A stretch of 64,000 bases of DNA from Amoebophrya sp. A120 (taxonomy: Eukaryota > Protista > Dinoflagellata), in contig CAJINV010000009.1 of NCBI GenBank assembly GCA_905178155.1, positions 2,209,373 to 2,273,372 of the forward strand, given 5' to 3'. How positions within the stretch are numbered: position 1 is the stretch's first letter; each line of letters starts with the position of its first letter. The notes beneath the pieces were generated by a model. It did not search any database. It was not told where the DNA came from and worked only from the letters and a program-made list of their open reading frames with translations. Positions 1 to 62,246 of this stretch are shown piece by piece. Position numbers and translations under genes: made by a program.

Positions 1-137
1 TGTTCCACATGCATGGTCACATGATCGAGCAGTCGAGGCAGGCTCCCTCCTTGCAAAATCCGCTCGGTCACTGCTTCGTGGTCCGTGTATGCCGCCCTGT
101 GAAATAAATGATCAAGCTCGTCAAGTACAGAAGACAT
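1..137 (-). CDS. 5' end of a hypothetical protein gene running off the window edge (MSSVLDELDHLFHRAAYTDHEAVTERILQGG...)
   Basis: ATG at 137, open frame to position 1, same strand as all other genes, preceded by AT-richer intergenic DNA. No recognisable motif. Confidence 0.45.
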   Translation of the reverse strand, partial: MSSVLDELDHLFHRAAYTDHEAVTERILQGGSLPRLLDHVTMHVE

Positions 138-23984: not shown

Positions 23985-26900
23985 TCATGTGCGTTCATCT
24001 TCGGCACGCGAAAAATATCTCTCCTGGCGGTTATTTTGTTCTAGCCAATTTTGAAAGTACTTCTGCACCAGCCGCGAATCTCGCAGCAGAGCGTTGTGCG
24101 CCAAGTACTCGGTTAATCCTCTGTAGGCCCGGCGGGCCTCGACGACGATGTCCTCTTGCAACTTGTTTTGAAACAACTGGTCCTGCAAATTCACTTCCCA
24201 AGCCACATTTTTTTCTTTCCGTTCGAACAAGGCCCGGAAGCTTTCGATCTCGTTCTTCTCGTACTGGGTCAAGGCAAACAGGGGCGTCATCTTTCCCAAC
24301 TTTTTCTCCACGGTGAACTCCCCCATGTCTTGTTTCAGGCGGTGCACGCCCCGGGACCGAAATTCGTTCTCCGTAGGGTCCAGACTCATTCCGTCGCTGA
24401 GCAAGGGGTACAGCCACTTGCTCGTCAATGTGCCGTCCTTTTTGGTCAGAACCTCCTCGACAACGTCGATCTCGTCGTTTAGCCAGCGGTGGTACCACGA
24501 CGCCTGTTGCAACGGGTCGTTGCGGTTCCTGTAGGTCGGTGCCTCGTAGCCAAAATCCTGCGCGATGAAGGCCAGGAGGAAATCCGGTGGAGGGAAGAAA
24601 AACCTCTTGTTCAAGTGGTGCTTCGGATCATCAGAAGATGTGGAAATAACCGGACTGTCGTCGTGCAGGAGCTGCTGGCGCAACTTCGTCGACGATGGAT
24701 CTACTGGTGATGAAGCGTTTCTTTTTACGGCACTCGCATGAGAATCGTGCGCAAGTAGCTTCCCTAGGAGTCGGTCGACCACTTTATGACAAATGAGAGC
24801 GGGAGACTCTGTTGCGGCGGTAGGTCCTGCGACTTGCTTCCCAGTCTCAGCCGCGTAGTCGTGGTCCCCTTCCATGTCAGATACTTCTGCAGCAGTAGTC
24901 CTACTTTCGCGAAGATTCGCGGACGCTTTGGAGGATAGGTTTTGTAGTGCAAGTGATGCAGCATCATGTCCATCGTCTTTTTCACTACGTGACTCTCGTC
25001 GAGAACCAGCAGAACCGCGAAGTTTGTCACGTGGAGGAGATGAAAAATTCGCGCGTGAAGATGTCCCCGAGGGCCTTGAGGACTTCTTAGCAATGCTATG
25101 TGAGATGACATTCCGCTGATTTGTCTCAGTCATGTCCTTCAAGAAATTGCAACTTCCGAACCTGTAGGACGATGTCCGCCGCCACAGTGGCTCGATGACC
25201 TCGGCCCATTCATAGTTGGAGAACGTGCGTTCGTGATCTTCAGGCCACGGAACGGATTCCAAAAAGTCCCGATAGGGTCTCCAGATCACGACATCGGCTC
25301 CCTCCGGCTTGGCTTCTTGTGCCCTTTGTCTCGCGCTTTCCTCCTCGTCTCTCGCGATTTGTTTGACCGACTCGGGGGGAATGCCGTTGACAAAGATCGT
25401 GCCGTTTGCTGAGGTGAGCCGGAGAGTTTCCCGACTGGCCTCGTTTTTGAACAAGCCACCCGGCCCCTTCTTTTCCTCGATAACAATGCCTTGCGCGATT
25501 TCAAAGAAAAAACCGAAGATCTCGGATTGCGGAATCGCATCCTCCCAGAAGGACTGGAAAACATCAGGATCCTCGATTGAGTTTCTTGATCCTGTTGTGA
25601 CCTCCACGACTGACCTGTCCATCTCCACGGGGGACAACACAGGGAGGGACATGGCGACCCGCTCGCCATGCGGCGCAAACGGAGTGGTCCTTGCTATTCC
25701 GTGACCGACCGGCGTCCGCGTCGAGCCTGCAGTTGGTCCCCTAGAAGTTGTCGACAAAGAAGATGCGCTGCGCTCCACATCTGCCGACGTTGTCGCGCGG
25801 CGAGCGAAACTGTTGCCCAAGGACAAACCAGGCATGATGCTAGCATCTATCGGATCCTCGTCATCTTTGAGTCCCACGGCCGGATCGCGCAAATGAACAG
25901 GCGTGGGCGACACATGATCCGCAGAAGATGCGCTGTCCTTCATCCGCGTGCTGCCTGCAGCTCGTCCTTCTCCTGAATGATGATCATAGCGAAGATCGTT
26001 CCGTTGATAGTGCATCAAGGTTGTGGAAGACCTTGCGACGCTCCCCGCCCACGTGTCTGTGCTTTGGCTGATCCCCTCGTCTGCGGGTAGCAGATCCGCC
26101 CCGCTGGTTGTTGCAAACGTGTCTCCACTGGGGCCGGCGGAATCCGGACTATTCAGGTTTTTCATAATTGCAGTGACATCAGCGGACATCCCGAGGAACG
26201 TCGTCGCTAACGCGGCAAACACCAAACATCCCCCGAGCGAAATCACACGGGCCTGCGAGTTGCCACAACACCGCCGTCGCATCCCGTATCAAATGTAAAA
26301 ATGTCTGGGTCTGGAAGAATGCGCGATTTGTCATGCAGCTTTTCTATGACCCATGAGGTCTGGCATGCAGGACATAGCATGACAGATTCTGCGCGATCTT
26401 TCCCATGCCTATCCTGCATGAAAAACTGCCTCCCGACTTGGTCAAAACTGGACGACTTTTGGTAATCATGCAACACAGATTTTTGCATGCTTCAGATTTA
26501 GCATGACAAGTTGCATTCTTCCAGACCCAGACATTTTTACATTTGATATCCCGTGGCTGCGCTCAATTCCAAAAGGAGACCGCTGATGGAACGGCCCATC
26601 CTATCCAGAAAAAAACACCCATCCACATCCAATTTGTCATGCATACCCGACTGCACCACATCAAAAACCTTTGCACCGTCGCCGCAAGCAGCTTCGGACG
26701 CAGGAGATCTAGGGTCAGAACCGCGGAAAACATCGCGAGTATTTCTTCATCCCCGGGCACATCCAATTTGTCATGCAAAACATGCATAAAATCCATTGTT
26801 TGTCATGCAAAAAATGGATGGGGATGGGTGTTTTTTCCTGGATACATCCTCGTCTCGCGCTAAGGGTTCTTGGGAGTCGTCTGATACAGAGCCGGAATTT

Positions 26901-29743
26901 ATATTCTCCTCCAAGTCTAAGTCATCGAGGACCAACTCCACCGTTCGAGCGGTCGTCCGTCCCGCTGGGTGAAGGAGAAGACTGTCGCCGCACGCATTCA
27001 GGCAACTTCCTGCTTCGTTCTTCATGTGCCAACAAAGATTTTTACACAAGCGAAATATGCCCCCGCCCCCGGAAATCAGCAATTCTGGGGTGCTTAGGAG
27101 GCACCCCATCTGGTGCTTAGGAAGCACCCCATCTGCCCCTTTGATACCGCGGGGGCCCGAACTTCGAGCCCCAGGAGCAAGAAAGTAGACTCCTGGTCCT
27201 AGCCAGGCGGGCAAGTAACCTTGTTTGACCAGCGGGAACAAAATCTCCTGGCCCGCTCCAGTTGTTACCTCTCGACGACCAAGGGTAAAAATATTACGCA
27301 CGGCGCCGCGATGAACAAAAACGCAGTAAGCTGCGCGACCTCAAGCTCATGGGATGATGGCCATCTGCTCAGGGAGCAAAGATGATCCATGCCGGCGATG
27401 AGCCAACTTCACACCCTGAGCGCCGTGGTATCGTAGGCATGCGAGCGCTCAACTTGTGACATTTTGCAGCACACATGTTGGGTTTTTGCATGCAGACACC
27501 AAAAGGTGAGCGCTGCACTCGCCCGATGCGGCAAGTCCGCCGATCCGGGTGTCACATAGACACCCGATCTGCCGGGATCTGGCGCTTCAAAAGATCGCGG
27601 CTTTTCTAAAGGGAATCCGCATGCTACAGGCCCGATTCGGCGGCGACGAAGTCGGCTCCTTCTGCGCCGCCGGATTCCGGCAGATCGGGCGTCTATGTGA
27701 CACCCGGATCGGCGGACTTGCCGATCCATAATTGGGCTCGCCGGTCGAGCTTTTTCCATATTTCGTTTTTGTGCATGACCGCGCCAAAAGCTTGAAGCTT
27801 GCCCGCGAGCCAGCTTCGGACTAGGAGTTAACTTCTTGCCGAAGGCACGCAGAGTAAGTATAACGAAGGGCAGTAGAAATACTAGCGTCGGAATCGCAAC
27901 ACTATAGCTAAGTAACAAAATACAGGCCCCATAGTCACCATGGTCCGATCGACGTGGTTTGGGTGTATTTCTATGGCGATGGATGGAACCTGCGGTCTGG
28001 GGCAATAGAGACGCCCCGTTCCTCTTTTTCATTGAGCGCAGCTTGACTCTTCAGCAAAGCGTGAGATATTGACTCTAATAAAGCACGCAGCCCTGGTGCG
28101 ACGCGCTTAAGCACCAGATGGGGTGCTTCCTAAGCACCAGATGGGGTGCCTCCTAAGCACCCCAGAATTGCTCATTTCCGGGGGCGGGGGCATATTTCGC
28201 CTGTGCTGTAATTTTCCGCATCGGCATCCTCGGCCCTTTCGCTAATCGTTACGCTATCTTCATCTTGATTGTTCTTACCGTTGCAGTGGTGCTCCGCGGG
28301 CTGACCGACACACTTGGCAGAGGGAGAGGCAGCGGACGAGGCTGGACAAATGGCAGCATTTTTATGCGCCCAAAACTGCGGCTCTGGTTGTGAAGTCCCC
28401 TTGCGGTCCCGCAACTTAGTACATTCAACACGCTGACCCAGATCAGCAGGCGACGAAGCTGAAGCACGGAGACGTTGGTCTTCGTGATGTCCTAGTCGGT
28501 TTCCCGTTCCAAGACCAACAGTGCGACACTCCGTCTTGTCTTGTGCCGGGCTTCCACCGTGTGAGGGAGAGGACGCGCTTGTGGATGGAAGCGCTGAAGA
28601 CTTACTCGTAGCTGAGCAATCACCTTCTTCGTTCCAAGGATGTTGATGCGCGCCCCTCTTTTCATCGTTTTCGACGCCAGCGCAATCAGTATGACAGGTT
28701 GTCGGGGTTTTCTCATTGCCTGCGTTTCCACCGAGAAGAAGTAAGGCCTTCCGTTTGGCCAGGCTACAAGGCGCTATCTTTGGCTCCTGGACCGTAGCTA
28801 TATCGAATCCGGCGCCAAGAAGACGGCGATTTTTCACTGGAGGGCCAGCGGATTCAGAATTTCCTGGCTCATCGTCGTCCGCCCCCTCCGGCGCGCCACT
28901 CGGCCCTTCTGCAGGGGCACTGCCGGATGCACTTAGTACAACTGTGCCGTCGCACTGTATCTGCGGGCCTCTTTCCACAACGTGGTCTCCCTCCGCTACA
29001 GCAGCTGCTAGTACGCCGGCAACTCCAATGGAACCAGTGGCAGTGCTGGGTGTAGGAGTTACATTACTGCGCTTGCTTCCTCTCTGCACTCGGCCTCTGC
29101 TACTGCCTCCTATGTCCCTCCCGGAGGTCGCGGTCGAACTGCTGCCTCGCCGTAGCCGCGACGTCGGTCCCCCGCCCTCCGCAACTTGTCTAATACCCGC
29201 ACTCTGTCGCTCTTCACCAGTCAAAGAAGAACCAGCACCAGGACGACCCGCTGGAGTTGTACTAGCGACAACTGGTTGTAGTGAAGATTCCGCTACGAAT
29301 GCACCGCCTGCGAATGCACCGCCTGCGAATGCACTACGAAGTACCGCTCCTACGAATGCACCGCCTGCCGCAGATGCTTCATCTGCTTCCGGCTCTGGCT
29401 CCTCCGCCTGCTGTGTCCTCATTGCCATGCGATCGACAACGCCTGAACTTGTGTCCCTTTCTTCTCGCGCTACTCGCTCAAGCAGGGGCAGTTGGAGTTG
29501 TCCGATGTGCTCAGAACCATCCCCTAACGGCCCACCTGGTCTTTGCTGACGCTGATCGTCCCTCGCAGCGAAATCAAATCGCGACGGAGGAGCCGAATTC
29601 AATTTCAGCGCATTTGCAGCCGTCATCGAATACGACAAGACCCAGCTGGCGCAAGTTGCAAAGAGCGCCAACAAAGGAAGTCCTCTGGCGGGGAAGATCT
29701 TCTCCATTTTGGAACAATAAACCGGATGCATCATCAAACACAT
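23985..29743 (-). CDS. Hypothetical signal-peptide + internal TM protein, ~1,356 aa, 4 exons (29743-28211, 27037-26845, 26596-26549, 26281-23985); paralog of neighbouring 30883-37986 gene
   Basis: Three ORFs (523, 176, 765 aa) join into one 4,071-nt frame when three TIR elements are removed (DAEN|LCWHMK, DED|GPFHQRSPFGIERSHG|MRRRCC). N-terminal signal-like LPLLALFATCASWVLS and internal TM ISLGGCLVFAALATTFLG. Confidence 0.85.
26287..26548. mobile_element. Introner-like TIR element 3 (262 bp), same family as element 7
   Basis: Perfect 36-bp TIR tatcaaatgtaaaaatgtctgggtctggaagaatgc. TSD tcccg (26282-26286 / 26549-26553). Frame restored on removal; in-frame stop if retained. Confidence 0.95.
26602..26844. 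mobile_element. Introner-like TIR element 4 (243 bp)
   Basis: ~30-bp TIR tatccag(a/g)aaaaaacacccatcc(a/c)catcca with 2 mismatches. TSD catcc (26597-26601 / 26845-26849). Frame restored on removal; GA...AG possible in one register. Confidence 0.95.
27043..28210. mobile_element. Introner-like TIR element 5 (1,168 bp) with ~90-bp TIRs and an internal inverted repeat
   Basis: TIRs ~27043-27135 / ~28115-28210 contain a tandem 23-bp unit ggtgcttagga(g/a)gcaccccatct and a 3-nt indel near the tip. TSD atttt (27038-27042 / 28211-28215). Internal IR at 27529-27723. Frame restored on removal. Confidence 0.92.
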
Positions 29744-30882
29744 ATCTTCACAAAGAAATGGAATAAATATATGCTCCGTGCAGACAGAATGGGAGGCACA
29801 GACTAGCAGAAGAGAAATGTATTGTAGCGAAAGGACGAATCAAAATGATAATGAACTCACTGTCAACATACCTGCTCCCGAAATCTTCAGAAGCAAACAG
29901 ATGACGAGAAGGCAGCAACGACTACGTCGACTGGTACCTACTGCACGAAAATTATGTACTTACTTACATCATGTCCACGAAGTACACGACACCATTTAGA
30001 TTAAGCCTGAAATGTACATGGACAATTTGTATTTGCGCAGTCTTTTTCTTTGTTTTCAACGTACAGAAAAATGTTTATGTTTTAGTTTTTAGAGATCATA
30101 ACAAACTGAAACTACGTTGAAGTTGAACAAGCTACTAGCTGATGCTGAGTAGAAGGAGCCTACTCCAGCTGCTGCAAGCTTGACGTCATTCACTTTGTCA
30201 TCGTTACATCGTCGACGTCATTTTTGTCAAACTCAGCAACGAACTATCTCCACCTATGTATAACATGAGAAACTGCACATCCTGCGTTGTATATGCATCT
30301 TCATCGCCCTAGCCCGGGTCTACTTGTACATGAACATGACCATCAGCAACAATTCGGCTCTAGAAGTTGAAATGAGAAGCTCTTTGGCTCCTTCGGTGCC
30401 GGTTTCTTATATGAAAAATGCAAGCTCCTTCCTGTGCGAGAGGCGGCGTGTAGTGCTAAATATTCGTCCAATGATTGAAGGAACGAATCTTATCCTGTGC
30501 CTGTGCACAAGCTATTGCTATGTTGAGTCCGAAGCTCCCTTTTAGCTCCCGAAAAAAAAATGGAATAGCAAATTCTTGGAAAATGCTGCATGATGTTGAC
30601 TTATGACTTTTCATTTCAACATGAAGATGAGCATGAGGTCGACCTCATATCTAAAATTGTCAAAATCAACGAGGGTTGCCCCCGCTCCCGCTCCGCGCAG
30701 CCAAAAATAGATCACTGCGCTGAGTCAAAAACGAGACCTACGGCGATACACACAGATGATAGCGAAGTGTCATCTTCGGTAGAGTACTGGTGCTGCAGCT
30801 CCTAGGGTAGAGCACTAGATGTGTGCTGCCCGGAGCAAGTGTCGCCCAGGTCCTCCTCCTCCTCACTCCTCCAGGCGACAGC

Positions 30883-33800
30883 TTACAGTGAATCCTCAAA
30901 GAGGTCCGGCCGTGGATTCGTTCCATCGAGCTGATAGATGCTGCGAAGAACGGGAATCCCGAAGCCAGGCTTCGCTAATGTGGATTCCGGCAGCAGTCCG
31001 TGAAACACGAAATCGTTCCAGAGTTCTTTCCATCGGTTTAAATCTCCCTGCGCTTCCGCGCAAACGTCCAGAGGGTTTGCCGCTTCTAGATTGCTGGTGC
31101 CACCAAAAATTTGTTGCTGTTGAATAGACGGTGCCGGCGCAACATCTTCACTAATCCCGGTTCCTTGATGCGGCTTCAGCGGCAGATTCTGCAACGATAA
31201 AGAATTGAGCTTGTACATGCAGAGCTGTTCTGTTTCGAAGTCCCGCAGCATGCCGAGACTGGGCTGCATTTCAAGAAGCGGGCTCTTCTCTTCTTGCGCT
31301 CGCAACGGCGCCCTTTTAGCCCCTTCGAACTTCATTTCACCGGTGGTGAGGTTGTACTCGAACTCGTCGAGGTCTTCGTCAATGTAGATCAGCATCTCCG
31401 GATCCAGCAACTGTTCCAACACCGCTTTAGACACCAGGCGGAATTGCGGTTTCTGCTTCACCCGGAACAACTCTTGCTGCAAAAAGTAGCGGGGGATACC
31501 CTCATTTCTTTCGCGCTTTTCACCCTCGTGGTGCGTCGAAGAAGAACTACTCCCCAGCCTTGCGCCAGAGGCTGTTGCATGATTAACGCAGTGCTCATCA
31601 TGGTGCTGCAGCTGATCTTGGCCTTGATCCGGATTCTGTTCATCATCTCTACTCGCCCGAAATGACGCTTTTCCACCCTCTTCTCCAAAACTCGTGCGCA
31701 TCATATCAAAATCAGCGGCATGAAAGATCAGAAATTCAGCAGCCTCGGGGCTTTCGGGAACGAGCGAAGTGGTCGTGCTGGTTGTATTCATCATCATCCC
31801 GGGCGGACCGCTCCACCCCGCCTCGTCTCCGGTGCCACCAAGATCAAGCCCGTCCTCGTTCTTCGAGTCCTCATCTCCAGCTGCGGCTGCAGAAGTTCTT
31901 TCCTGTTCCGGTTTGATCTTTTTGTTCCGCGGCTTCTTAACAACTGCAAAAGTGTGGGTGTGCAGCATCTGTCGCTCCGTTGGATCGCACCACCACGTGT
32001 CCGCGTAAAACGAAACTTCGATCGCAAACGCGAGCAGCTGGGATTTTTCAGCCGCCTCGATGGCTTTTTTGTAGTCGGATGTGGTCCGGTAGCTCCTTGT
32101 GGTTGTGTCGGGTGCAGCAGAAGTACGAGTCTCGGAATCATCCACCCAATCAGATTCCTCGTCTCTTAGGTCCTGCTGGTCCCGCAACGCCTGTTTGTAG
32201 TGCGTCTTATCGAATATCCTGCGGCTCATCTTTTTACTGAAGAAAAGCTGGTCCACCAAAGAAGTTTTCGGGTTCTTTCTCAGCTCTTGCTCGCTCCTTT
32301 TCCACTTTGAGATTCCAGATACCAGGTTGGATTCAGATGATCCCGCACCACCCGTTTCTTCTTTCAACTCCTCATCTTCATCGTCTTCCGGTGAAAAATC
32401 TGGCACCACTTGCAGCCCCCCGTGCGCTCCGACTACTTCCATGCTGCGCGTCCCAATGAAAATGTTCTGTGACTGATTTGGGCGTGGAATCAAACCGAGA
32501 ACCGCCGCCGCCTCCTCAAACGCTTGTCGCGGCTCCAAGTACACCGGCAGGCTGAAGTAGCTGGCCACTTCCATCATCTTGTCCTGTCCGTGCGAGGAAC
32601 CCTCGGTATCACGATCTGCTTCTAGTGAGCCCTCTTGTTCCGGATCAGGGAAGACTCGCTGCTTCGCCATCCTCTGCATCCAACTAGCCGTGCCAGCTCG
32701 TTGAATGTAGTTTCTCTGTTGGGTAAGCACGAAGCCCGTCAAATCCACTTTCCAAATCTTTAAATCCTGCAGCGTTGGCACTGGAGGACTCTCCACAAGA
32801 AAAGGTCCCAACTTCGCCTCCCTCTCGGCGATCATCAGCGTGGCCACCATCTGCTGCGCTTGTTGTAGCTCCCACGCGAACAGGGCTACTGCAGCTTTGG
32901 AATCGTAAAGAAACGCTCTCGTCAGCTCTGACACAAGCAGTGGATACAAGCCGCTGACCTCCCGCGCAACTTCGTCTTTCAGATTTTTCACGCAATTTTG
33001 CCGCGAGCGCTCTTGAAGTACCTCCTCGCTTTTCGTAGGACTCTCCGACGCACGCGGCGGCGACGGCCCCTCCTTCGCCAATTTCAGCAGCGGCGTCGCT
33101 CTTTCAGCTTCGATCTGCATCCGCAGCTTGCTCGAGTTGGCGTCATCTGCAGCTCTCGCTTCTGTCCGCCGAGCAGATTCACAACCTTCCGCCGCCTCGT
33201 CCCATACGTCGAGAAAGGAAGGCGTCGACTGGTTCCACACTTGTGACGGTGTCTTGCCATCCTGCGCGAGACGGAGCAAAACTCGGTCCGCCCCGAAATT
33301 CGTCCCGAGAAACGATAGAACGAGATCAGGTTTGGGTGATGTATGCTGATGGGATTCATTTTTTTCATGCCCCAAAACACAATCTTCGAGGGGCCTCGAC
33401 GGCAAGTTGGAACTCTGCCGAATGCTCTTTCTGTCCAACAGCAGGCCTCGTCGCAGAGTCCAGTCCAACAACGATCGCCCCCCGTTTCCCCGGTTTACGA
33501 CTTTGCGCACACCCACAATTCTTGGCTCTGGAGCGCTACTAGCTCCATCACCATCTTCTCTAGACGTGGACGAAACAAGCTTCCGACGTTCATCTTCGGA
33601 ATGACCGCCGGCGTCGCGAAAAATGCTGCTGCTGAAGAGCCTGTCGAAAAATCTCTCCTCGGTCTGGCGGATCTCGCGTTTCTGCAACTCCCTTGCGCTG
33701 TCGACCATCTCTTTATCGCTTTGCTCTAGATGTTGGGCCGCGTCGACCTTGTTGCTCCCACTTTTGTTCTCCTCGCCAGTCAAATGATAATTCGGATTAC

Positions 33801-36800: not shown

Positions 36801-37986
36801 CTCCGGATTCGCAACTCCGTGGAACAGAGTTCGCATGTGGCACTCTCCGTATGCCCAAACCTCTGCCTGCCACATCTTCAAGAGACGCAACTCGCGGGCC
36901 TGCATCTGCAGGTCGTGTCGCAACATGAACATCTTGCTCGACTGTTCCTGCTTTGCTCGTGATCGGAATTGCTGGAGTGGAAAGTAGCACATGCTCGTGC
37001 ACTGCACCACCGGAAATAGAATTAGAGCGCCCGGCTTCATTCCTCGTCAAGCCAGAAACCTCTTCTTGCAGTCGCACGACTTGCTCAGCTGCAGCACCGT
37101 GCGCCGCTGCGTGAATGAGCATCGGTCGTAGTTCCGGCAACGCTCCATCCGAGGCAGCTTCCCCAGAATACGTGTATGCTGGTCCGGACGCGGAGTAGAG
37201 CGTCGTCTCTTCCTGGCTTTTTACGGCCATGGCAGGAGTCGAAAGTTGACCTTCTTCTCCAAGTGGTCCAGGATAATGTTGCAAATAGAACGCGGCATCG
37301 GTTTCCGCACTTGCACCCGAAGGCCCGCCCCCCGTAAGCGATGAAGTTGTGTTTCTGGCATGTAGTACCAACTCTCGCAAGCGTTCCGCGATGGGGTCAG
37401 GCACGTCACGCATCTGGCCACTTGAGGAAGTCGTGGTGGAGGAGTTTTCGTTAACTACAGCCGGATCAACAACACCTCCACGCAAAGACGTCGCATCTTC
37501 AGCTGCGCTCCCTGCTCCTCCACTTCCCCCTGCACTCCCACTCGAGCCACCATACCTCGCTCCTTCGACTTCACGATCCTCTTCCTGAAGATCGGTTTCA
37601 TTTTTCGCCGGCCCAGAAGTACTAGAGAGGTCCACCTCACTAGCAGCTTCTTGGTCTTGCGACACGACAGGCGGAGGCGCGTAATCGTGCTCAAGTCCTC
37701 GCTGTGCTTCATCTTGTTGTTCCGCGCTTTCAGTGGCGGTCCGATATGTTCGCGACGCTGCATTTTCCACTTCATCCGACAGAGGCAACGGGGTGTCCAA
37801 TAGTCCAGTGCCGATTCGTTCCGTTTCGTCAACGAACGCGGCACCAGTGCTACGCTCCATTGAGCCCGCATACGTCGAAGTAGCACGCGGGTCTTCCCCG
37901 CTCGTGTGCGAAGCGGTAGAGGGATAAACTCCTGCCGCGGCTACTCCGCCTCTTGTCGCGGCTCCGAATACAAGAAAAAATTTCAT
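30883..37986 (-). CDS. Large hypothetical signal-peptide + internal TM protein (~2,367 aa), intronless, paralog of 23985-29743 gene
   Basis: Uninterrupted 7.1-kb ORF. MKFFLVFGAATRGGVAAAG signal-like N-terminus, internal TM CGLVSLGFANLALVLGILFS, and conserved blocks shared with the neighbour (FWKELFPISDLQSFF, PYLHFLDSVPW, PKPDLVLSFLGTNFG, LYPLL). Confidence 0.88.
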   Translation of the reverse strand: MKFFLVFGAATRGGVAAAGVYPSTASHTSGEDPRATSTYAGSMERSTGAAFVDETERIGTGLLDTPLPLSDEVENAASRTYRTATESAEQQDEAQRGLEHDYAPPPVVSQDQEAASEVDLSSTSGPAKNETDLQEEDREVEGARYGGSSGSAGGSGGAGSAAEDATSLRGGVVDPAVVNENSSTTTSSSGQMRDVPDPIAERLRELVLHARNTTSSLTGGGPSGASAETDAAFYLQHYPGPLGEEGQLSTPAMAVKSQEETTLYSASGPAYTYSGEAASDGALPELRPMLIHAAAHGAAAEQVVRLQEEVSGLTRNEAGRSNSISGGAVHEHVLLSTPAIPITSKAGTVEQDVHVATRPADAGPRVASLEDVAGRGLGIRRVPHANSVPRSCESGEREQTWTSGGIEEGHDDDQHRDRRKGSILQSMTLREQCEDPAELRHVDSLRDPSTSAGGDTTGSSFRRRREELEEEDNDQVFHGQEDGGVVEEDVEGATTTQESAASTAEVSPQVEGENPDPVMNRNAAPLEYDLHELHDGHDGAPYNYDEHQHHRYSVGGWIDRFWTFLISPDASQGQTQVYEQVLPDEVGVQSAPFHFGRRQGAQRHRRTTRGVDLETGTDGFLADEQQPRDARAVAPRGMPTTPDREASRLRVSPEQTPEQVDPPRSSPFLSRGQVSQDDDNPRPQPTRRGNSRPIPGTRMMDDSARVAAGSSSSASQELHSPALADHEGNVETALLDLRHMSRPGGSGASSAATPPREGDDESMLAFEQMQNGERRAILDAVYYNSSMLQLHDGEDAPLQPPLPEARSLAGTSPGNNREHTTCLSATKKCGLVSLGFANLALVLGILFSNQLPATPADKVGQVVPYQDRNNSENRSESMQTTGSGSELSGDGPRGPGSRRGPRGRRPAAHQAPAGLDEKSSPIWTVFYSSLALDVPGSPPSSNDIRHPQEARYRAFWKELFPISDLQSFFATVAARSMQRRVRLENSDEESSARSGGDGFEESGRRDAARTLRSPTFPTTKIPSRVGKDRAENAASSAGHDQLGAGEEMSVRRLLRTSPAAQRRPQQLPPESDHFDTELTASVNFNEVMHKNSSEVSSSVKPDAPASSTTTSSPSSSSTSTRARRAAASTSSTTLASTPNRPGTTSVATPSGDEQGASAEWYAKMRKRAHEVWDQERIDAYREASEAPYLHFLDSVPWRQQQCGPFPPLPETDWTAELRPLWLEKVRTAWSVLDQIQFGEEDVDWWIRDPDNLKRKVQVHLKPAKMGKGMHGVFPPGTVSPLPENQRIADMERRRYYDEAERFRLTVQAQQRRREDLRALAEGLHNEVDAIEDVGTSGDSRGSSKKDQHGEEGMKSEELPREHRDRTVRNQSRQWSEEDARQRITSTASPGVGNDAGNPNYHLTGEENKSGSNKVDAAQHLEQSDKEMVDSARELQKREIRQTEERFFDRLFSSSIFRDAGGHSEDERRKLVSSTSREDGDGASSAPEPRIVGVRKVVNRGNGGRSLLDWTLRRGLLLDRKSIRQSSNLPSRPLEDCVLGHEKNESHQHTSPKPDLVLSFLGTNFGADRVLLRLAQDGKTPSQVWNQSTPSFLDVWDEAAEGCESARRTEARAADDANSSKLRMQIEAERATPLLKLAKEGPSPPRASESPTKSEEVLQERSRQNCVKNLKDEVAREVSGLYPLLVSELTRAFLYDSKAAVALFAWELQQAQQMVATLMIAEREAKLGPFLVESPPVPTLQDLKIWKVDLTGFVLTQQRNYIQRAGTASWMQRMAKQRVFPDPEQEGSLEADRDTEGSSHGQDKMMEVASYFSLPVYLEPRQAFEEAAAVLGLIPRPNQSQNIFIGTRSMEVVGAHGGLQVVPDFSPEDDEDEELKEETGGAGSSESNLVSGISKWKRSEQELRKNPKTSLVDQLFFSKKMSRRIFDKTHYKQALRDQQDLRDEESDWVDDSETRTSAAPDTTTRSYRTTSDYKKAIEAAEKSQLLAFAIEVSFYADTWWCDPTERQMLHTHTFAVVKKPRNKKIKPEQERTSAAAAGDEDSKNEDGLDLGGTGDEAGWSGPPGMMMNTTSTTTSLVPESPEAAEFLIFHAADFDMMRTSFGEEGGKASFRASRDDEQNPDQGQDQLQHHDEHCVNHATASGARLGSSSSSTHHEGEKRERNEGIPRYFLQQELFRVKQKPQFRLVSKAVLEQLLDPEMLIYIDEDLDEFEYNLTTGEMKFEGAKRAPLRAQEEKSPLLEMQPSLGMLRDFETEQLCMYKLNSLSLQNLPLKPHQGTGISEDVAPAPSIQQQQIFGGTSNLEAANPLDVCAEAQGDLNRWKELWNDFVFHGLLPESTLAKPGFGIPVLRSIYQLDGTNPRPDLFEDSL

Positions 37987-39493
37987 TTTCAAAAGAAAAC
38001 GAAGATAGAAAAACTATAGTAGTGATGAAAGAATTTTACGGATAAGAAGTTAGGTGAAAAGAAAAGCGCCACCGCACCGTCATCACGACGTGTGACGATG
38101 ATACTGTTACCCAGTAAAGGGTTCACAAGAGTGAGATTTTAGTTATGGGGTTCCGCAACAACACATATCAAATGAAAAAGCTAACTGGAACGGGAGGAAA
38201 AACAGGGGTATTAATAGGAATGGCTCAAATCTGTTTTTCCTTGATGTCTATTTTTGTGCAGCATCCCAATCTCAATCTTAACAACATGAACATACTAGAT
38301 CCTCTTTCTCATCTTCGACTACACACATTATATACAGATAGAGTTGACCTCATCAAGTTAACATACAACATGCTGACCACGAACCAGCAATGGATCTTTA
38401 CTTTTTACCTTCCGCAGCTAAGAAAAAGGCCGGATCTTGGTACGCTAGCTCCTGTTTCGTCTTCAATATGATCGTTTGTCGTCTTCGAAAACGTAACTAA
38501 CACGAAGGGATCGAAATGCTGAACGAATGCTGATGAATCACTACAGCAAACTAGCACCAGAAGAATACTTCGAAGGATCTGATGGGTTGATGTAGTGCCG
38601 CTCTTGCAAATTGCACACCAGATACTGGCGCTGCTATTTTTGCTGATCGTAATACAGCCGAAATTGTGATGTTTTACAGTGAGACCTTCGAAGATAGAGC
38701 ACCAGAATAGAGTTTGTTAGAGCCTCACGAGGAAAGAACAAAACCAGGTTTATCTTTATTGATCCTCATCTGCAGATGCACGGTCACCTGCGATCGTGAA
38801 TGTGATTGGCTCGAGATAGTTACTTTCGAGTACTTTTGCGGTCGAGGTCATGCTATTGCGATGATGTCGATAGATCGAGATATTTACTTTTGGGGTGGGT
38901 ACTTGATATCCATATCTGCCACATCATGTGGGTGTGAGCAGCCTTCTTGTTAGCGTGTCGCGTCGATGTTCAGCTTCTGCGTGTGCCTTGTGCTGTGAGT
39001 GAGAAGATGCAGCACGCGCTCAACTCGCATATACATGCATTACGACTTCTCCAAAACCACGAATACCATGGGTTCTAGGATTGCGATTTTTCATTTTTAT
39101 TTTTATTGTGCCGTCTCTTTTATAGTTCCGATCACCTTGTGGTGATGATGGAAGTCGATCTTCGGATCATCTACTTTAGTAGTAGCAGAGAACGGCATGT
39201 GAATGTAAATCGTGGTCGAAACTACTTAAGATCTATCTTCGTCGAGCTTCATTAAAGTCAAAACACTTGACGCGTCGCCGTCCTGGGTCATAATTTCGCA
39301 GTAAAAAGTTGTAAGTTACAGGGGTGATGAAGAGGGTAGGGGTACGAGCACGAGAAAGAAAAATGGAATACAGGTCGCTTTGAAATTTCTGTGGCTGGCG
39401 TGACGCCTCCAGTCATGGTCGCGAACAAAAAAAAAACCACACCACCGCAACCGGCCACTCTCTCAAAACCAACACAGGAGCTTGCTCCAGCCT

Positions 39494-41775
39494 CTACACA
39501 CGTCCACCTAAGGACAGCTGGCTGTCGCCGCTTTCCCAGCTTGCAACACTGCTGACGCTGTCCCGGGTCTCCCCAGATTTGATCCCGGCGCGGGATCGGC
39601 CTCCGTGGGTGGAGCTAGTCGGGTGCAGGTTCGATATTCCCGCAGTCGTGGTTACTTCGGGGTTTACTTTGTTGCTCTTGCCAGCGCGTCCGATCGGAGT
39701 TTTTGTGCCCCCAGCCGAAAAATCGTCATCGTCGTCCACAGCGGACGCCTTCCCCGGGTAATCTTCCCGCAACCATTTGCGCCAGCGGCGCTTGACCTTT
39801 GCCTTCCCGACGGTGGCAAACAAAATGCAGCTGCCGGTAGCGACGAAAACGCCGAGCAGGTGTGGGAGCCAGACCGCCGTGTTGTCGTAGAAAAAGTACC
39901 CGACGATCGTCCAAATGATGCAACCGGCGAGACCTGCGATCGCCATCTCCGGAGCGCCGAGAGGGCCGACGTCCCGGGAAAAGTACACGTTGGGAAAGTG
40001 CAGAGCCGGGGAGCACACCTGGTCGCGTTCAGTTTATTTGAATGCCTATTGACATCGAACTACAGGAAAAGGAAGAGGAAGAAGAACTAGAACTCTACGG
40101 CGCATCATATGAAAAACAATTCAATTACGAGCGCAGGACTCACGTTGTTGTTGAAATTTCAACGCGGCAATTCTACAATGAACTCAAAGCGCATCTTTAT
40201 CGAAAAACACTATACCAAAACGAGCATAACCGCCGATGCCAGGCTGGCCAGTGATTCGATGCTGAAGAAGAAAGCGCTGATGAGCCCCAGGACGAACAGC
40301 AATCCTATGATCTGCAATTGCTGGTTAAAGAGCGCCCGCTTTTCCAAATCCTTCTGACAATTCTTGTAGAAGGTGAAGACGTAGAAGCTGTTAAACGACA
40401 GACCGGAGGTGTTGGACAGGATCAGAATCGGCTCGAAAATCAGGATGGTGTACAGCAGCCAAAGGGAATTACAGCTCATTGCAGATGTGAAGGGTGTCGG
40501 GGAAAGCGTCAGCACTGTGCCGTCTCTCTTCACCTGGAGCATTCGCTGCATCGGCGCGAGCTGGCACGCGATATTTATGACCAGACCGAGCCTCTCCAGC
40601 AACATTTGGACAAAGATCCCAGAGGAGGTCTGCACGACTTCAATGTGTGTTTTCTTCGTCTCGAGGACCAACTGCTGCTCCGTGCCGTCACTGTTGATTA
40701 CCGCTTGGTTCTGATTCAGGTGCACGATCTTCCCATCCTTCGTCTGTACTGCAACAACCTCCTTCATCGGGTCGGCTTTTTTCGCCACCTTTACTCCTTT
40801 GTGGTGCTGTGAGGCTGTTGAAGCTGATGAACTAGTCGGCGCGGCGTGGGACGAAACGGGCGTACTGCCACCGCTCCTTGCGGTGTTATCTCCGCCATCC
40901 GGGGTTCCCGGAGAGGACTCTTGCTCAACCATAATTTTCACTTTTTTTTCTGTCGGCGCACCCGCATCGCCACTTTTAGACGCGGGTTTTGAAGAAGCAT
41001 AGCCAAGCGGACCTTTTGCTGTCGCGTCCTGTTGACTCGGACGGAGTTCGCGGGTGTGGACAGCCGTTCCGGGTTGCACGACAGCGGGCGTGCGCGTGGT
41101 AGAAGGGCCGACAGGGGTTGCACTACTAGCCGCAGGTGTTGTTGACGCCGTGTTTGATGTCGAAGCAGGCGGTACAACGACTTCCGCTGTTTCTCCTGTC
41201 GGCTTGCTAGTACTGTGGTTAGTGCTCTGTGAATTCTCTTGCAACAGAAGAACTGGTGGCTTTTCGTCAGTTTTCGATGACTGCGAAATCTCGTCGTGCT
41301 TGTCTTGACTTCTCGAGGAGGTTGAAGAAGAGGAGCTCGTCGACGATGCATGATAATCCCCATCCTTCGAGAAGTTCGTCGTCTCATCTTCTGCATGCCT
41401 CGCACCCGAGGTGGACCGCTCTTGTTCTATTACACTCTTTGCTCCAGCATCCTCCTTGATACCTGTTTCTTCTCTTTCATCACCTACACTCACAGTCGAC
41501 GGGGGAATCGGCCAGCTACTTTCATGATCCACAGCTGGAGCGTTGGAGGTCGCATCTGGTGGTGCTGCCGTTGAACTGGAAAGTTGATCTGTTGAGTCAT
41601 GCGCACCCGTACTGCTCGGCGTCGGCTCTGTTCCGTTTTCATTTCTTTTGGTTGACGACGCTAAAAACTGCCGACCTGGAGTAACCTGCTCTGGTAATGC
41701 TGCATCCTCGGAGTCAACAAATCCGACACGCAAAATGACCAGCGTGGCAAAAAGAGTGCCGCGAAAGGAGATCAT
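39494..41775 (-). CDS. SWEET (MtN3/saliva) family sugar transporter with signal peptide and long S/T-rich N-terminal extension, ~694 aa, 2 exons (41775-40216, 40018-39494)
   Basis: Two MtN3 repeats: LGLVINIACQLAPMQRMLQVKRDGTVLTLSPTPFTSAMSCNSLWLLY...ILSNTSG and LVCSPALHFPNVYFSRDVGPLGAPEMAIAGLAGCIIWTIVG...VWLPHLLG. Joined in frame by GT-AG intron 40019-40215. Confidence 0.85.
40019..40215 (-). other. Conventional GT-AG intron (197 bp) in SWEET gene
   Basis: TTG|gtatag...gaccag|GTG, phase 0, restores the second MtN3 repeat. Confidence 0.8.
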
Positions 41776-43305
41776 CGCGCGTGCCTGCACGTAGCTCGCC
41801 AGATAGGCCGCCGGTCCTCGGAAGCTTAACTCCAAGAGCAGCTCCAGCTGGAAAGAGCTGGAGTTGAAAATGATACACCGACGATAACAAGGACCATCTT
41901 CAACTACTTACTTATTTGTGAAAGAATTCTTTTGCGCCTTTCGACTTTATCATGTTGTCCAAATTTCTACAACAGACAATACTTCTATCCGACGCAGATT
42001 CAGGCTCGCGATCTGCTTTTAAAAATGAGAAAAACAAAAATCAGCTTAAAATAAAGTCAAACACTCTTGGCAAACTCCAATGCTGTAGAGGAAACACTGA
42101 AAACAATCATAAAAATGCCTGCGGAGAACAAATGAAGATACGAGGATAGATATGGCGGCAGTATGGACGTGGTTTGTTATGTCATTGAGAAACAGACACC
42201 GACACAAAGATCTGTGTTTTACCAAGAGCGTAGATCGTAGTAGTAGAACAACCGAATCCACCGCGTTCCGTATCCGTGCTCAACAACTAATTCTTCAGCA
42301 TTAACATTTTTACGTACTCCAGAGCTAGATCTTTCTCTTCGTCGCTGTCAACAAAAATTTACGCAACAATTCCAAATTATTTTATTCTGATCGGATCATT
42401 TTATTTTTCCTGATCATGGGCTCTGCTCCTAAGCTTCCTTGCAGTGAGATCATGCGAATAGCCGATTTTGTTTTTGACTCCATCTACATACGCAATATAG
42501 GCTTGTCTCAACCAGACCGCCGGACAGCTGCCAGCAGCACCTGTTGCGCGATGTCCGAGGGGTGGATGAAAAGTATCCGCAGAAATCGAAGAGTTTTTAG
42601 TCTTCTTCTATCTTGAATGCAGGTCGCTCGTTGCAGAATTTCGCGATCAGGACTGCAGTAAAGACAGCGGTATGACTTCAATGCTCCACGGAACATTTGC
42701 TGACAGTCTGTGAACAGGCATCCGAGTGCATTTTGCAGCTGTCTGACTCCCTGTCCCTCTCTCTTAGCAGCTCCCGGTTGCGTCATAGATTCATTTTCAA
42801 GCTGTACTTAATGTGCGCAGGACTCGCTCCATAAAGCCCCTTCCTGTCTTTGCCCATTCACCAATCGTGGTCTCGATGTTGTTTCTATTTGTACAATCAT
42901 GCAGTCAACATGCTAACAAACTCAGTGCGCACCAGACAGGAAATCATATAATTGGACAGAAACTTGCTTTGATATGTAAGGATTTAGTAAGGATAGAAGT
43001 TGTACCAAGTGCAAAAACAGTAACAAAAAAGAAACAGTAAGAGTAACAGAAACTCGCGTCGCACACAAACACACATATTTAAAAAACGAAAAGTTGCTTT
43101 GATATGGAAGGATTTGATATACTGAAGTCTATTTTGTCCAAGTTATTCCCGGTCTGGCTGTACTCTCTTTTCATTTGTTTTTTCTTTATAAAATATCTTC
43201 ACCCCGCTGCTGCAAGCATCATACATTGACCAAAATCCGGAACGTGGCTCTGGGGCCGGACTACGAGTGGTCCGCGTGAAACCTTTAAACAGCATCTAAC
43301 TTTCT

Positions 43306-46300
43306 TTACTTCGCTTTGCGCGTCTGCAAGAAGCCGCTGAGCGTGCCCATGTCGTTCTCCTCTGCGTCTTTGGAGTGGGTCTCCAGAATCTGCAGGGCAT
43401 CCTTCAACGACGCAATCTCCTCCTCGCGGCGCTTTTTGCGGGCTTCGAACTGGTCTCCGGCGTTGACGCAGGCCTCTTGCCGGGCCTTTAAAATTTCCTT
43501 GGCGGTCTCGAGCGCACCCTTCTTGGTTGACTGCTGCTCCTGGTACTTCTCCAGGTTGACCTTCTCGGTGTCAATCTCGCCGGTCAACCGCTCGATCTCC
43601 TTCTCGCACTCCGCGATGTCCTTTTCCATGGTTTCCTTGCGCTCCTGGTTCTTGTACTGCTCAGACTCGTAGTTTTTGTCACCGTCCACAATCACACCGT
43701 CGCACCCGATGTTCTCGCCCTTCCGGGTCTCGAAGCTGTCCTCCGCGACGCAGCCAGACTGTTTATTTTCATTCTCTGTGCATTGCGCGGAGTTGAATTA
43801 GCATAATTCCTGCAGCTCCAAATGCAAACACCAAATCGCCTCCCACATTTTTCTTCTATACATTAACTCAAAACTACGAATCAACGTCCCAGTTTCGAAA
43901 ATCTAATTTTAAACTCTCTTCTACCTCCATCTTGGCCTGATCCGCGGCCCAGGAGTAGTCCGACTCGATCCCGGTGAGCAGGTCGATCACGGATCCGCCG
44001 GACGTGGTGCGCTGACTGCTGAAGTCGCCGGTCGCGCTCTCGCCGTAGATTTCCTTCAGGAACCCGATGGCCTCCTGCAAAGCAGCTTCCCCGGAAACCT
44101 TTTCTTCCAAGAGATCCTTGTAGTAGCTGTCCTTCTCACCCATGAGCTTCTCTAAGGCTGCGAGGTCGGTCTCGAGCGTCTCTTTTTCTGTCGTCTCCTC
44201 GTTGAATTCGGTGTTGAGCTTGACCAGCAAGGCTTCGGTGTCCTTGACCAGCGTGACCGCGGCCTGGTGGTCCGTGTCGGCATCGTCAGAGGCGCCCTTC
44301 ATCTTCTGCAGGCTCTGCGCGCACCAGTCGGACTTCGAGGTCTCCGCGTCCTGTTCGTCTTCCAGCCGGGTAACCATGGTCTCGATCAGGTTCCGAACGG
44401 ATTTAAAGTAGTCCGGCTTGGAAACCTGCAAGTTCATCTGCAGAGCGACGGAGGAAAGGCGAGAGCCTGATGATATTTGAATGATTGGCTATGATTTTGC
44501 AATTCCAAAACATAGCGCAAATGAACCCATGCCAGAAGGCCAAACTAGCTCCACCGATCTCCGACAGCGGGTCTACGGCTCTTCTACGGAGAGTTTTCAT
44601 CACATATAGCTGGTTTATTTATGCGCGTTCTAAATCGTCGCGTCACAACTGCACTGGTAAACAAAAACAAGGCGAGTACAAGCTTCTTCGATAGTCTTAA
44701 AACTATCTGGCGAGCCAGGTAAAAAAAACAATAGTACTGTGCAAAACCGCGGCGGACGAGGCGATGCTCTTCAGGACGTTGGCAACCCGCTGACGCAACT
44801 CCTTGTCGTCCGAGCCCAGCTGCAAGAAACTCTCGCCGGCCGGCGCCGGGACCTTCTGCAACGCTGCAATAGCGCCGGTCAACCCGGAGATCTCGGCGGT
44901 CAACAGCTTTGTGCTCGCGTCGTACGCGACCGCGGCTTTTTGGCACGTTTCGGTCGTCTCGGCCACGCCCTTCTTGGCGGTTGTGCGAATTTCCTTCTCG
45001 TCCACCAGGGCGGACTGCGTCTCCCCCAACTTTCCCTTGGTGTCCGACAACTCGGCCTCGAGCTTCTCGGAAGCGGCGATGGAAAGATCTAATATGGCGC
45101 TCTCAAACGTTACATTCTCAACTGTTACACGATTTGTCATGCAAAATTGCCTTCAGAATCGACAGCATCAAGCTGCTACGCCTGACAAATTATCAGAGGG
45201 CCAAACAGGCTGATAATCGGTGCCAAGTCTGTCATGCAAGACGCGCAAGATTCCCCCTATCACTTTTGCCATTCATTCTTGCATCGCAAACTCATGTAAC
45301 AGTTGAGAATGTAACAGTTGAGAACGCCATATCTAAAAAGCCCTGGTTGGAAGAAATTGCCTCCTCCAAGTCGTGGATCTTCGCCTGACATTCATCCTCG
45401 CCCTGCTGAATCTCGGTTTTCCTGTCGAAAGCGTGCTTTCGCAGCTTCGTCACCATGGTAACGACGGCTTTGCTGCTCGAGTTATCAAATGCAAAAATGT
45501 CTGGGTCTGGAAGAGTCATGCTGTTTTTGCATGACAAAGAAGGGCTGGCATGGAGGCTCTAGCATCACAGGTTTCGACAAGCGTTCACAATGCCGAATCC
45601 GCATGACAAATCACCCCTTTTGGTGACAGAAAGTGGAAACTTTTGCTGCCTTTGCATGAGAGATTTTTTTGTGCTCTGTAATGCGCATTACAAGTTTGTA
45701 TCTCCAGACCCAGACATTTTTGCATTTGATACGAGTCCTGCATCAGGGTCAGAACCTTGTCGCACGCCGCCATCATGGCATATGAAAGCCTCAGAATGGA
45801 AATCCTCAAAGTGGAAATGATTTGTGATGCATGAAATGCGACGCAAAATAGACTGTATTGCCGAGAACGCAATGGAGGCTGACTATTGTCCTGCTAGGGG
45901 TCAAGAATTGGAGTGCTGCTTAGCACGACAGAAGGGCCCCCCCTTGCCTTAAGCTGCATGACAGACACGCTTTAAGTGCCCGGGAAATTTGTCATGCGCC
46001 GACTATAAATGGCGCTCCAACTGGAGTCGTTTTTTTGCATTACAAATTATTTTCACTTTGAGGATTTCCAACCTGAGGCTTTCATATGGCATCCAGCTTG
46101 CGGACGCGCTCCTCGCATTCCTGCTTAGTGGTGTCCAGAAGGGTGGTGTCACCACCTGGTGGTTTTTGTTTGTTGTATCACTATCAATCCTTGTTCCGTT
46201 TATCCGAGCCACTTTTAAAAATGATTCCTGCACGCATATTTTTCTACACACAGACGACAAGCAGCGGTAGTGCTAGGAAGCGAAAAAGTGGGATTCCAAA

Positions 46301-61476: not shown

Positions 61477-62246
61477 ATCATGTGTTGCTGCTTTGTGGTG
61501 GACGACGAGAATTACAAAAGCACAAGGCCCTCTTCCAGCAGGCTACAGCAAAGACTTGCAATTTGATTGCAATCATTTTCATTTTGGGTGGGAGGTTAGA
61601 AGCATCGTCTAGTGAATGGTCGGAAAGCTTAACGATTCGAAGTTGTGTTCGCGAGAAAAGAAGTTCCTGGTCCTCTTTGGTGTGACTGACATCCAATCTA
61701 GCAGCTTCGCTCAAAAAGAGCAAGATTCGCTGCAGGGCTATGAAGCCGTAGTCGACTATAACGACGAAGTCGAAATACCTTTACGAGGAAGGTACAACAA
61801 GGACCACACTATGTGCGCTTAATACGAGTAGAAGGAGGATTATTACACAATAGACGAGTTGTGACATCTCTCGATGTGGTCTTCTCTCAGTCTCAGTTTT
61901 ATCTCCAACACAGAATCAGAAAGAAAACAAAGCGAAAGCGAGCGCTAGACACATCAATTTTGGGCTACGGTTGGTCACACCTAAATTCTCGACCTCTCAG
62001 TCTCAAGAACGGTAAACGACATCAAAATCATGGACATGGTGCAGCACGGACCACCGCCTCGGCAGACAAAAAGAGAACCATCGCTGGGAGCCTGCACCCC
62101 AGTGGTAGATTCTACTGCCTGAACTCTTGTCTTCAATCCGAAAAAAATGGATGGTAGGAACTCATCTGCTTCATTTATCAAGATCAATAGGGCGCCAAAT
62201 TATCAAAGCCAGACTTGCAGCGGGAGACTGGGACGTCCTGACTCTT

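Follow-up and report, generated by a model that had tools for sequence, protein, structure and literature searches.

The closest described systems are the introners of the marine parasitic dinoflagellate Amoebophrya A120 itself, most families of which stand as unknown TIR elements in the published classification. Farhat et al. report that a transposase was not found in this genome (PMC7789003), and the Gozashti dataset labels one A120 family, fam38, as 'Ginger, 5-bp TSD, TA/TA termini' (PMC12130899). The available text of Farhat 2021 (PMC7789003) and Gozashti 2025 (PMC12130899), supplement text included, yielded neither an internal motif nor a spacing rule. Internal sequences have been described in other short mobile elements: subterminal motifs matter for transposase complexes in the Emigrant MITE/Lemi1 system (PMC1636448), and an internal enhancer raises excision of the Stowaway element Ost35 (PMC3660474). 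In IS1535, of the IS607 family, helically phased motifs some way in from the end are the starting point for cooperative binding and for pairing of the ends (PMC6188088).

Eight elements lie in the window, the whole 64-kb stretch of A120 DNA analysed here, and all eight carry an exact 5-bp target duplication (TSD) and TA..TA ends, the termini being TAT or TAC. Five are short introners (coordinates without strand) of 239-306 bp, as first described: el3 (26287..26548, 262 bp) and el7 (45483..45731, 249 bp), both of family F1; el4 (26602..26844, 243 bp; F9); el6 (45093..45331, 239 bp; F8); and el8 (45781..46086, 306 bp; F5). The three long elements are el1 (6923..8693, 1771 bp), which lies inside a Piezo-type gene and has the F9-type TIR of el4, and the TAC..GTA elements el2 (10178..10913, 736 bp) and el5 (27043..28210, 1168 bp). 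Both el1 and el2 hold internal copies of their own TIR core. Some 10,800 X1 contigs matched and were stacked on the short elements, which are thus repeated in the genome. Elsewhere, an F5 element of 1,104 bp in locus L016 looks like a nested insertion and holds a 238-codon frame.

A degenerate site shared by short elements

The original prediction was that GTCATGC/GCATGAC recurs in all five short elements, is rare in the flanks and is largely absent from the long elements, and the window bears this out. All 13 listed sites were recovered, with offsets of 0-5 bp: 26330+, 26377- and 26501- in el3; 26636+, 26770+ and 26802+ in el4; 45136+ and 45231+ in el6; 45515+, 45529- and 45601- in el7; and 45956- and 45991+ in el8. 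The window total of 18 compares with 9.07 expected and was reached or exceeded in 1/100 shuffles. Thirteen of these 18 matches fall within the 1,299 bp of the short elements (10.0/kb), as against four in 59 kb of other window sequence (0.07/kb) and one in the long elements. Five random length-matched stretches had a 7-mer in common in only 9/2,000 control draws, with at most 8 copies versus the 13 observed.

The motif as first given is real but incomplete: the 7-mer is part of a longer, degenerate site of nine letters, Y-TGT-V-W-TGC. At least one strict site occurs in 351/353 short TAT…ATA elements with 5-bp target duplications, collected with family F1 alone as search bait, and in 12/12 TIR families with n>=3; one locus, L046, was discarded as a chance match with neither element nor site. 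These elements measure 110-330 bp and carry about 1.5-4.5 sites each, and 168 F1 copies are known from the window and the collected loci. Outside the short elements the window holds two sites in ~60.8 kb, compared with 6-9 in shuffles. No site was found in el1 or el2 and no strict site in el5, whereas short TIR-mates of el1 do carry sites; this short-versus-long contrast is limited to three long elements, and two of them, el2 and el5, come from other families.

In held-out copies, conservation of the sites is about equal to that of the TIRs: identity is 0.88-0.97 in the TGT/TGC columns and 0.82-0.96 in the inner TIR, versus 0.63-0.78 in other interior columns (9/9 families with n>=9). Substitutions are very rare at positions 6-7 (7 and 21 sites, versus 752 exact), and T occupies the V position in only 15/1,285 sites. 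VATB is an adenine-methylation motif, but a methylation target was rejected because T replaces A at the W position in 219/1,344 sites. A single res-like recombination site was likewise dropped, since the sites are several and are found close to both element ends.

The TIRs, called unrelated in the original prediction, prove otherwise. Family consensus ends consist of TAT, about seven variable bases and an A run (weak in F5 and F6), and in most families the TIR has an A-tract followed by a family-specific tandem hexamer. Among F1 TIR pairs collected without a TSD filter, 77/85 have a 5-bp TSD and 0/85 a 6-bp one. Because of the TA..TA ends, the 5-bp TSDs and the A-tract with tandem hexamer, the families look, from their sequences, like one superfamily. 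The signal does span 12/12 families, but to call it family-independent was an overstatement. Recent descent of whole interiors does not explain the sharing: among the four TIR types of the window only el3 and el7 align, other pairs sharing just 11-21 bp matches, mostly at motif sites. The families are nevertheless not fully independent (F4-F7 interiors are 75% alike over 134 bp), and the family TIR consensus ends do not include the shared site. Since the TIRs do have features in common, deep common descent together with selection is likely, and the motif is probably an old common trait maintained by selection rather than a product of convergence.

Helical spacing of the sites

The periodogram of site positions peaks at 10.4-10.5 bp and falls to 0.00 at 11.0 bp, with reversed sites shifted by 5.5 bp, half a turn, on the same lattice; a second peak lies at ~15.8 bp (0.44 vs 0.52 for the main peak). 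Counted in turns from the first core, the cores of el3 lie at 0, 4.07, 12.97 and 15.93 (26329+, 26377-, 26470- and 26501-), those of el4 at 0, 12.82 and 15.89 (26635+, 26769+ and 26801+) and those of el6 at 0 and 9.09 (45135+ and 45230+). The corresponding values are 0, 3.16, 6.89, 14.69 and 14.93 in el7 (45529-, 45562-, 45601-, 45677+ and 45685-) and 0, 2.97, 12.2, 15.98 and 19.95 in el8 (45823+, 45854+, 45956-, 45990+ and 46037-). Families differ in how many sites they carry and in where and which way round these lie, yet the sites are in phase.

Same-strand sites are spaced 31-32 bp apart in 12/12 families (by a single pair only in two of them), and convergent partners lie at 15 or 16 bp (0.083 and 0.050), with values of at most 0.007 at all other offsets from 8 to 30. 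The inverted dyad first noticed at 45515-45535 in el7 is present (45514..45536, 7-nt spacer, its left half one mismatch from the strict site) and turns out to be an instance of this general convergent spacing. Phasing holds when one element per family is drawn (p<=0.015 in 11/12 draws) and when the 31/32, 15/16 and 47-bp module pairs are removed (p<=0.018 in 20/20 draws; 10/12 families positive), persisting at distances of 50-110 bp (0.43) and 111-180 bp (0.29); F6, F9 and F2b have no phase beyond the spacing module. The lattice is weakly tied to the element ends, with a common phase in 8/12 families (between-family p=0.057) and F3, F10 and F11 about half a turn off it. Whole-turn element lengths were not seen (length phase p=0.49), which leaves unsupported the idea that an element closes into a minicircle with an integral number of turns. 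A period of 10.4-10.5 bp with no signal at 11.0 points to B-DNA, not RNA, and the suggestion of a DNA-level cis signal is upheld.

Splicing and alternative readings

The excised intron corresponds to the element plus one TSD. Joints that skip el6 (244 nt, without a GT-AG or GC-AG register), el7 (254 nt, non-canonical) and el8 (311 nt, non-canonical) all come from one contig of run X3, and joints skipping el1 (1776 nt, GT-AG register available) occur in X3, X4 and X5, which are one sample, presumed RNA. The predicted junction of el2, which has no canonical register, is matched by loose ends of 8 and 13 nt. No RNA joints for el3, el4 or el5 were seen in the runs searched, and raw RNA runs X17 and X18, with two matching reads each, were uninformative. 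Removal of el3, el4 and el5 together restores a 1388-codon minus-strand frame, which removal of el5, again without a canonical register, lengthens from 946 codons. Since the site-free long elements all restore frames and two show splice joints, the motif seems dispensable for splicing. A splicing-factor site would be expected to show a sense-strand bias and to be present in all spliced elements; el1 and el2 are spliced without it, and the strand excess has p=0.059.

That the sites act in RNA, as splicing-factor sites or as an extension of a hairpin required for non-canonical splicing, is accordingly very unlikely. Both orientations occur, which would display the signal whichever way an element inserts; sense-strand sites slightly outnumber antisense ones (281 vs 231; p=0.059 at element level, n=144); a GT-AG register, rare among the elements tested (5/127, including GC-AG), is available in el1, which lacks sites; and predicted folds pair 52/152 motif bases with another site. 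Set against this are the handling of el2 and el5 without sites or a canonical register, the 10.4-10.5 bp period and the failure of left and right F1 sites to covary (same VW in 32/119 copies vs 51.4 expected, 3/119 in register). An RNA-binding splicing factor and a hairpin role, both entertained in the original prediction, are therefore unsupported. That the motif is a neutral leftover of a single ancestral interior repeat common to all families is scarcely more credible. The TA..TA ends and 5-bp TSDs of all families, the hexamer-tandem TIRs of most, the relatedness of some interiors across families and the weak information left between the 31-bp pair are what such a relic would leave, but sites match the TIRs in conservation when adjacent interior columns do not, and a phase kept despite family-specific site number, orientation and position adds to this; the idea is largely refuted.

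Two readings accept the DNA lattice and dispense with a role in jumping or with a protein. The array could bind a host chromatin or transcription protein that aids tolerance of the insertion (through chromatin, polymerase passage or co-transcriptional splicing), which we consider unlikely. The lattice indicates DNA binding, not the purpose of binding, and because most copies keep intact TSDs (77/85), selection for mobility and selection for tolerance are inseparable here. The site, however, is almost missing from the host sequence of the window, long site-free elements are tolerated inside coding sequence, F1 copies carry no more sites in called reading frames than elsewhere (3.97 vs 4.15 per copy, p=0.63), and the classic nucleosome signal of 10-bp AA/TT periodicity is absent after masking of the sites. 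Protein-free bendability, from phased A/T runs and TG/CA steps, is an improbable account: curvature needs phasing, a purine-then-pyrimidine run precedes the site and two TG steps lie 5 bp apart inside it, but the near-invariant positions 6-7 and the avoidance of T at V appear over-specific for it.

Proposed mechanism and known systems

We favour, with some reserve, the reading that the site array binds a single common protein whose bending of the short elements serves their transposition. The sites would form a double-stranded-DNA array for a sequence-specific protein, probably one that dimerises on convergent sites 15/16 bp apart and binds cooperatively at three-turn intervals, and this protein or domain would be distinct from the reader of the family-specific TIR tandem hexamer. 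In-phase binding would loop the 110-330-bp element, let its ends pair and raise its copy rate; candidates are a host architectural factor or an element-encoded accessory. A more elaborate two-tier code, in which the tandem hexamer picks the transposase and the universal phased array recruits one DNA-bending factor that loops the element, is a tentative extension that we would not bet on. Transposase-family matches numbered 0/119 among flank frames (of 126) and 0/15 among window frames, over ~0.66 Mb, and a search of viral contigs for the TIR patterns returned no match. Bending help is not always required, because Mos1 MITEs 80-120 bp in length need no helper to transpose in vitro (PMC2642840).

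If the favoured reading is true, a mobility signal would be set apart from that for splicing in elements that form much of the genome's introns; under the two-tier code, the bending factor would be what amplified these elements into tens of thousands of new introns. The conserved site and its strict spacing provide a specific bait with which to pull down the missing protein, and the spacing offers a sharp test in half-turn versus full-turn insertions. The site is also a family-independent marker for locating introners.

The elements described here resemble the A120 introners of the published descriptions (PMC7789003, PMC12130899) in their TAT-starting TIR with about seven variable bases and an A run, their short direct repeats and their non-canonical splicing, and the family lengths given there (106, 149, 209, 252-260, 278, 305 and 319 bp) equal lengths found here. 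The 5-bp TSD (77/85), the intron as element plus one TSD and the tandem-hexamer TIRs go beyond those descriptions as far as their available text extends. TA..TA termini are shared with IS3EU/GingerRoot, whose usual TSD is, by contrast, 6 bp (PMC10045372) rather than the 5 bp seen here (6 bp in 0/85). TDD-4/5 (Ginger2/TDD) share the 5-bp TSD (PMC10045372, PMC2836005), whereas Ginger1 and Ginger2 have TGTNR termini (PMC2836005) in place of TAT or TAC. Like Emigrant and Ost35, as described in the accessible accounts (PMC1636448, PMC3660474), these are short non-autonomous TIR elements with a conserved, candidate functional internal sequence. The Emigrant motif is a copy of half its own TIR (PMC1636448), whereas the present site is unrelated to the TIR, is common to 12 TIR types and is phased across the whole element. 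With IS1535, on the published outline of that system (PMC6188088), the elements share short, helically phased motifs placed inward of the end; IS1535 has a serine transposase, no TIR or TSD and direct repeats mainly at one end, whereas the A120 elements combine TIRs, a 5-bp TSD and sites in both orientations.

A site shared by the short elements

The heptamer GTCATGC (GCATGAC on the other strand), which the original prediction placed in the five short elements of the window (el3, el4, el6, el7 and el8), is indeed concentrated there. All 13 predicted sites are present, 0–5 bp from their expected positions, and the short elements hold 13 of the 18 window matches in 1,299 bp (10.0 per kb versus 0.07 per kb outside elements). 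The three long elements (el1, 6923–8693; el2, 10178–10913; el5, 27043–28210) lack the strict site, a degenerate nine-letter extension of the heptamer (Y-TGT-V-W-TGC); as predicted, the motif is largely absent from them, their single heptamer match, at 27773, having no preceding T. In a random control, five stretches of equal lengths had any common 7-mer in 9 of 2,000 draws, with at most 8 copies.

With the TIR of el3 and el7 as bait, at least 154 stretches were returned by a metagenome scan, corresponding to 148 loci and, after merging, 132 (598 kb); these may differ in strain from the window, and one, L046, was a chance match. Elements were called blind to the motif, from TAT…ATA ends, paired TIRs and a 5-bp TSD with at most one mismatch, yielding 364 elements (six from the window) and, once F2 was split, 12 TIR families with at least three short members, in the window and the loci among the matches listed. 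Family F1 (el3 and el7) is over-represented by design (162 short copies), the remaining families being drawn from flanks. With the TSD filter off, an exact 5-bp duplication accompanied 77 of 85 F1 TIR pairs, and a 6-bp one none of the 85 (loci among the matches listed). An F5 element resembling el8 (L016:505–1608) carries about 780 bp of different, repeat-rich sequence, apparently a nested insertion. Close to an F1 element lies a gene for a C-5 cytosine DNA methylase, spread over two frames (L013:2625–6080).

Across the window and the loci among the matches listed, GCATGAC occurs in at least half of the members of all 12 families and the strict site in 351 of 353 short elements (family means 1.5–4.5). 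Its full form is a purine-rich run, then YY, then TGT-V-W-TGC, with T at the V position in 15 of 1,285 sites. In a split-half test on held-out copies (9/9 families tested), the TGT/TGC columns were 0.88–0.97 identical, versus 0.63–0.78 for other interior and 0.82–0.96 for inner TIR. Masking by family profiles left two sites in 60.8 kb of window (6–9 in shuffles) and 127 in 444 kb of the loci among the matches listed (41–61 in shuffles), the latter excess being taken as uncalled elements. The shared site is real, selected, DNA-level and common to families.

Spacing and helical phase

In the elements of the window and the loci among the matches listed, the first inward site lies 32–33 or 40–44 bp from the element end in most families. 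The spacing of same-strand pairs peaks at 31–32 bp, such pairs being present in 12/12 families, and convergent partners sit at 15 or 16 bp, with almost none at other offsets of 8–30 bp; the inverted dyad originally reported is an instance of this spacing, which is common in F1, F4, F6, F7 and F10 and absent from F3, F9 and F11. All pairs up to 110 bp follow a period of 10.4–10.5 bp, with reversed sites offset by 5.5 bp (mean cosine 0.52–0.53, versus 0.00 at 11.0 bp; a second periodogram peak lies at about 15.8 bp, 0.44). With period and offset fitted on the same data as the p values, one random element per family compared with random placement gave p≤0.015 in 11/12 draws, or p≤0.01 in 10/12 draws without F7 and F11. 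On the same fit, the signal remains when the module spacings (31/32, 15/16 and 47 bp) are removed (p≤0.018 in 20/20 draws), 10 of 12 families being positive, F6 and F9 negative and F2b zero. Phase also extends to 111–180 bp, and 13 of 14 non-reference sites in window elements are no more than 0.2 turn away from a whole number. Anchoring of this lattice to element ends is weaker (p=0.057), element lengths show no preference for whole turns (p=0.49), and no AA/TT periodicity was found in the elements tested. Length modes of F1 (252/262) and F2a (311/321–322) in the loci among the matches listed lie about 10 bp apart, as if one-turn indels were favoured.

Removal from transcripts and the level of the signal

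Each of the eight window elements is flanked by an exact 5-bp TSD and has TA..TA termini, with TAC as the start of el2 and el5; these traits and the removal of the elements agree with features of Amoebophrya A120 introners in the part of PMC7789003 consulted. Contigs from one sample, its runs being RNA by guess, skip el6, el7 and el8 as 244, 254 and 311 nt (element plus one TSD) and el1 as 1,776 nt. Without el1 and el2, a frame stays free of stops over at least 2,409 codons; without el3, el4 and el5, one does so over 1,388 codons. A Piezo domain is interrupted by el1 (profile positions 170/168). The very large Piezo-type channel gene (about 4255–21849, minus strand) is broken by el2 and el1: upstream of el2 it has 3,827 codons in a frame lacking stops, and its Piezo cap and anchor domains lie downstream. 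Other minus-strand frames encode a tubulin-tyrosine ligase domain (52456–61542, 3,029 codons) and a SWEET/MtN3 transporter (40213–41907). Two canonical GT-AG introns (43759–43924 and about 44466–44737, minus strand) share a transcript with the non-canonical el6–el8, and neither contains a GTCATGC match. An el2-like sequence with different flanks and a few differences occurs in contigs from X4 and X5, two runs taken by guess to be RNA; further copies of el2 may be transcribed unspliced.

The site could act in RNA through site-to-site pairing, and in predicted folds 52 of 152 motif bases do have their pairing partner in another site. However, left and right F1 sites show neither covariation nor a pairing alignment (32 of 119 alike versus 51.4 expected), and site-free elements are removed: el1 is spliced, albeit with a GT-AG register available, and el2, which has no such register, is matched exactly at its predicted junction by loose ends of 8 and 13 nt. 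Judging by frame continuity, el5, also site-free, is probably removed as well. Both element orientations occur in called frames (150 of 364 elements called, among the matches listed), and the sense-strand excess of sites is marginal (p=0.059). On balance, the signal resides in double-stranded DNA and is not needed for splicing; of the roles originally proposed for the cis signal, the DNA-level one holds, and one as an RNA-binding splicing-factor site or a hairpin finds no support.

A sequence-specific candidate protein would bind one face of the element at in-phase sites and curve its 110–330 bp, so that the ends would meet more easily; long elements would loop unaided, with their own TIR core repeated in place of the site. 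We offer such bending of short elements only as a hypothesis, because Mos1 mini-elements do without a helper in vitro, according to the part of PMC2642840 consulted. Neither such a protein nor a transposase turned up among 15 window frames and the 119 of 126 long flank frames scanned.

Descent and known systems

Between the four TIR types of the window, similarity is limited to short matches, most of them at the motif, consistent with a sharing that recent descent of whole interiors does not explain; in the loci among the matches listed, F4–F7 and a few small groups have longer interior similarity. Nor are the TIRs unrelated, as had been supposed: they are built to a common plan, in which TA-Y is followed by some seven variable bases, an A run and a tandem of 5–6 bases that is specific to the family. 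Five of the 12 families have a perfect tandem, four more have one that is 5/6 alike, and the el2 and el5 TIRs fit the plan by eye. It occupies TIR positions 16–29 or so in most families (for example, window 26303–26314, 26619–26630 and 27059–27070), and its differing word looks like a family-specific recognition code. Because of the shared plan and partial interior similarity, all families likely form one superfamily, the site being an old trait kept by selection. Inside el1 and el2, the element's own TIR core recurs several times, in both orientations. Large internal palindromes and A/T runs are also present in el1, and tandem subterminal repeats in el5.

The motif words have no match in the Farhat supplement text consulted or in the 12 Gozashti supplement files covered (of 14); the 38 A120 rows covered (of 58) carry no sequences. 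The literature searched, judged from listings, contains no report of motif or lattice; an earlier mention is possible. Judged against the parts consulted of PMC12130899, PMC1636448, PMC6188088, PMC2642840, PMC10045372, PMC2836005, PMC3660474 and PMC11282704, the elements fall outside Ginger and IS3EU by their ends or TSD, and the Emigrant motif is copied from that element's own TIR, whereas the shared site here is not. By analogy, the array would resemble in action the subterminal or enhancer arrays found in MITEs and at IS ends; it differs from the Emigrant motif also in being common to 12 TIR types and phased across the whole element.
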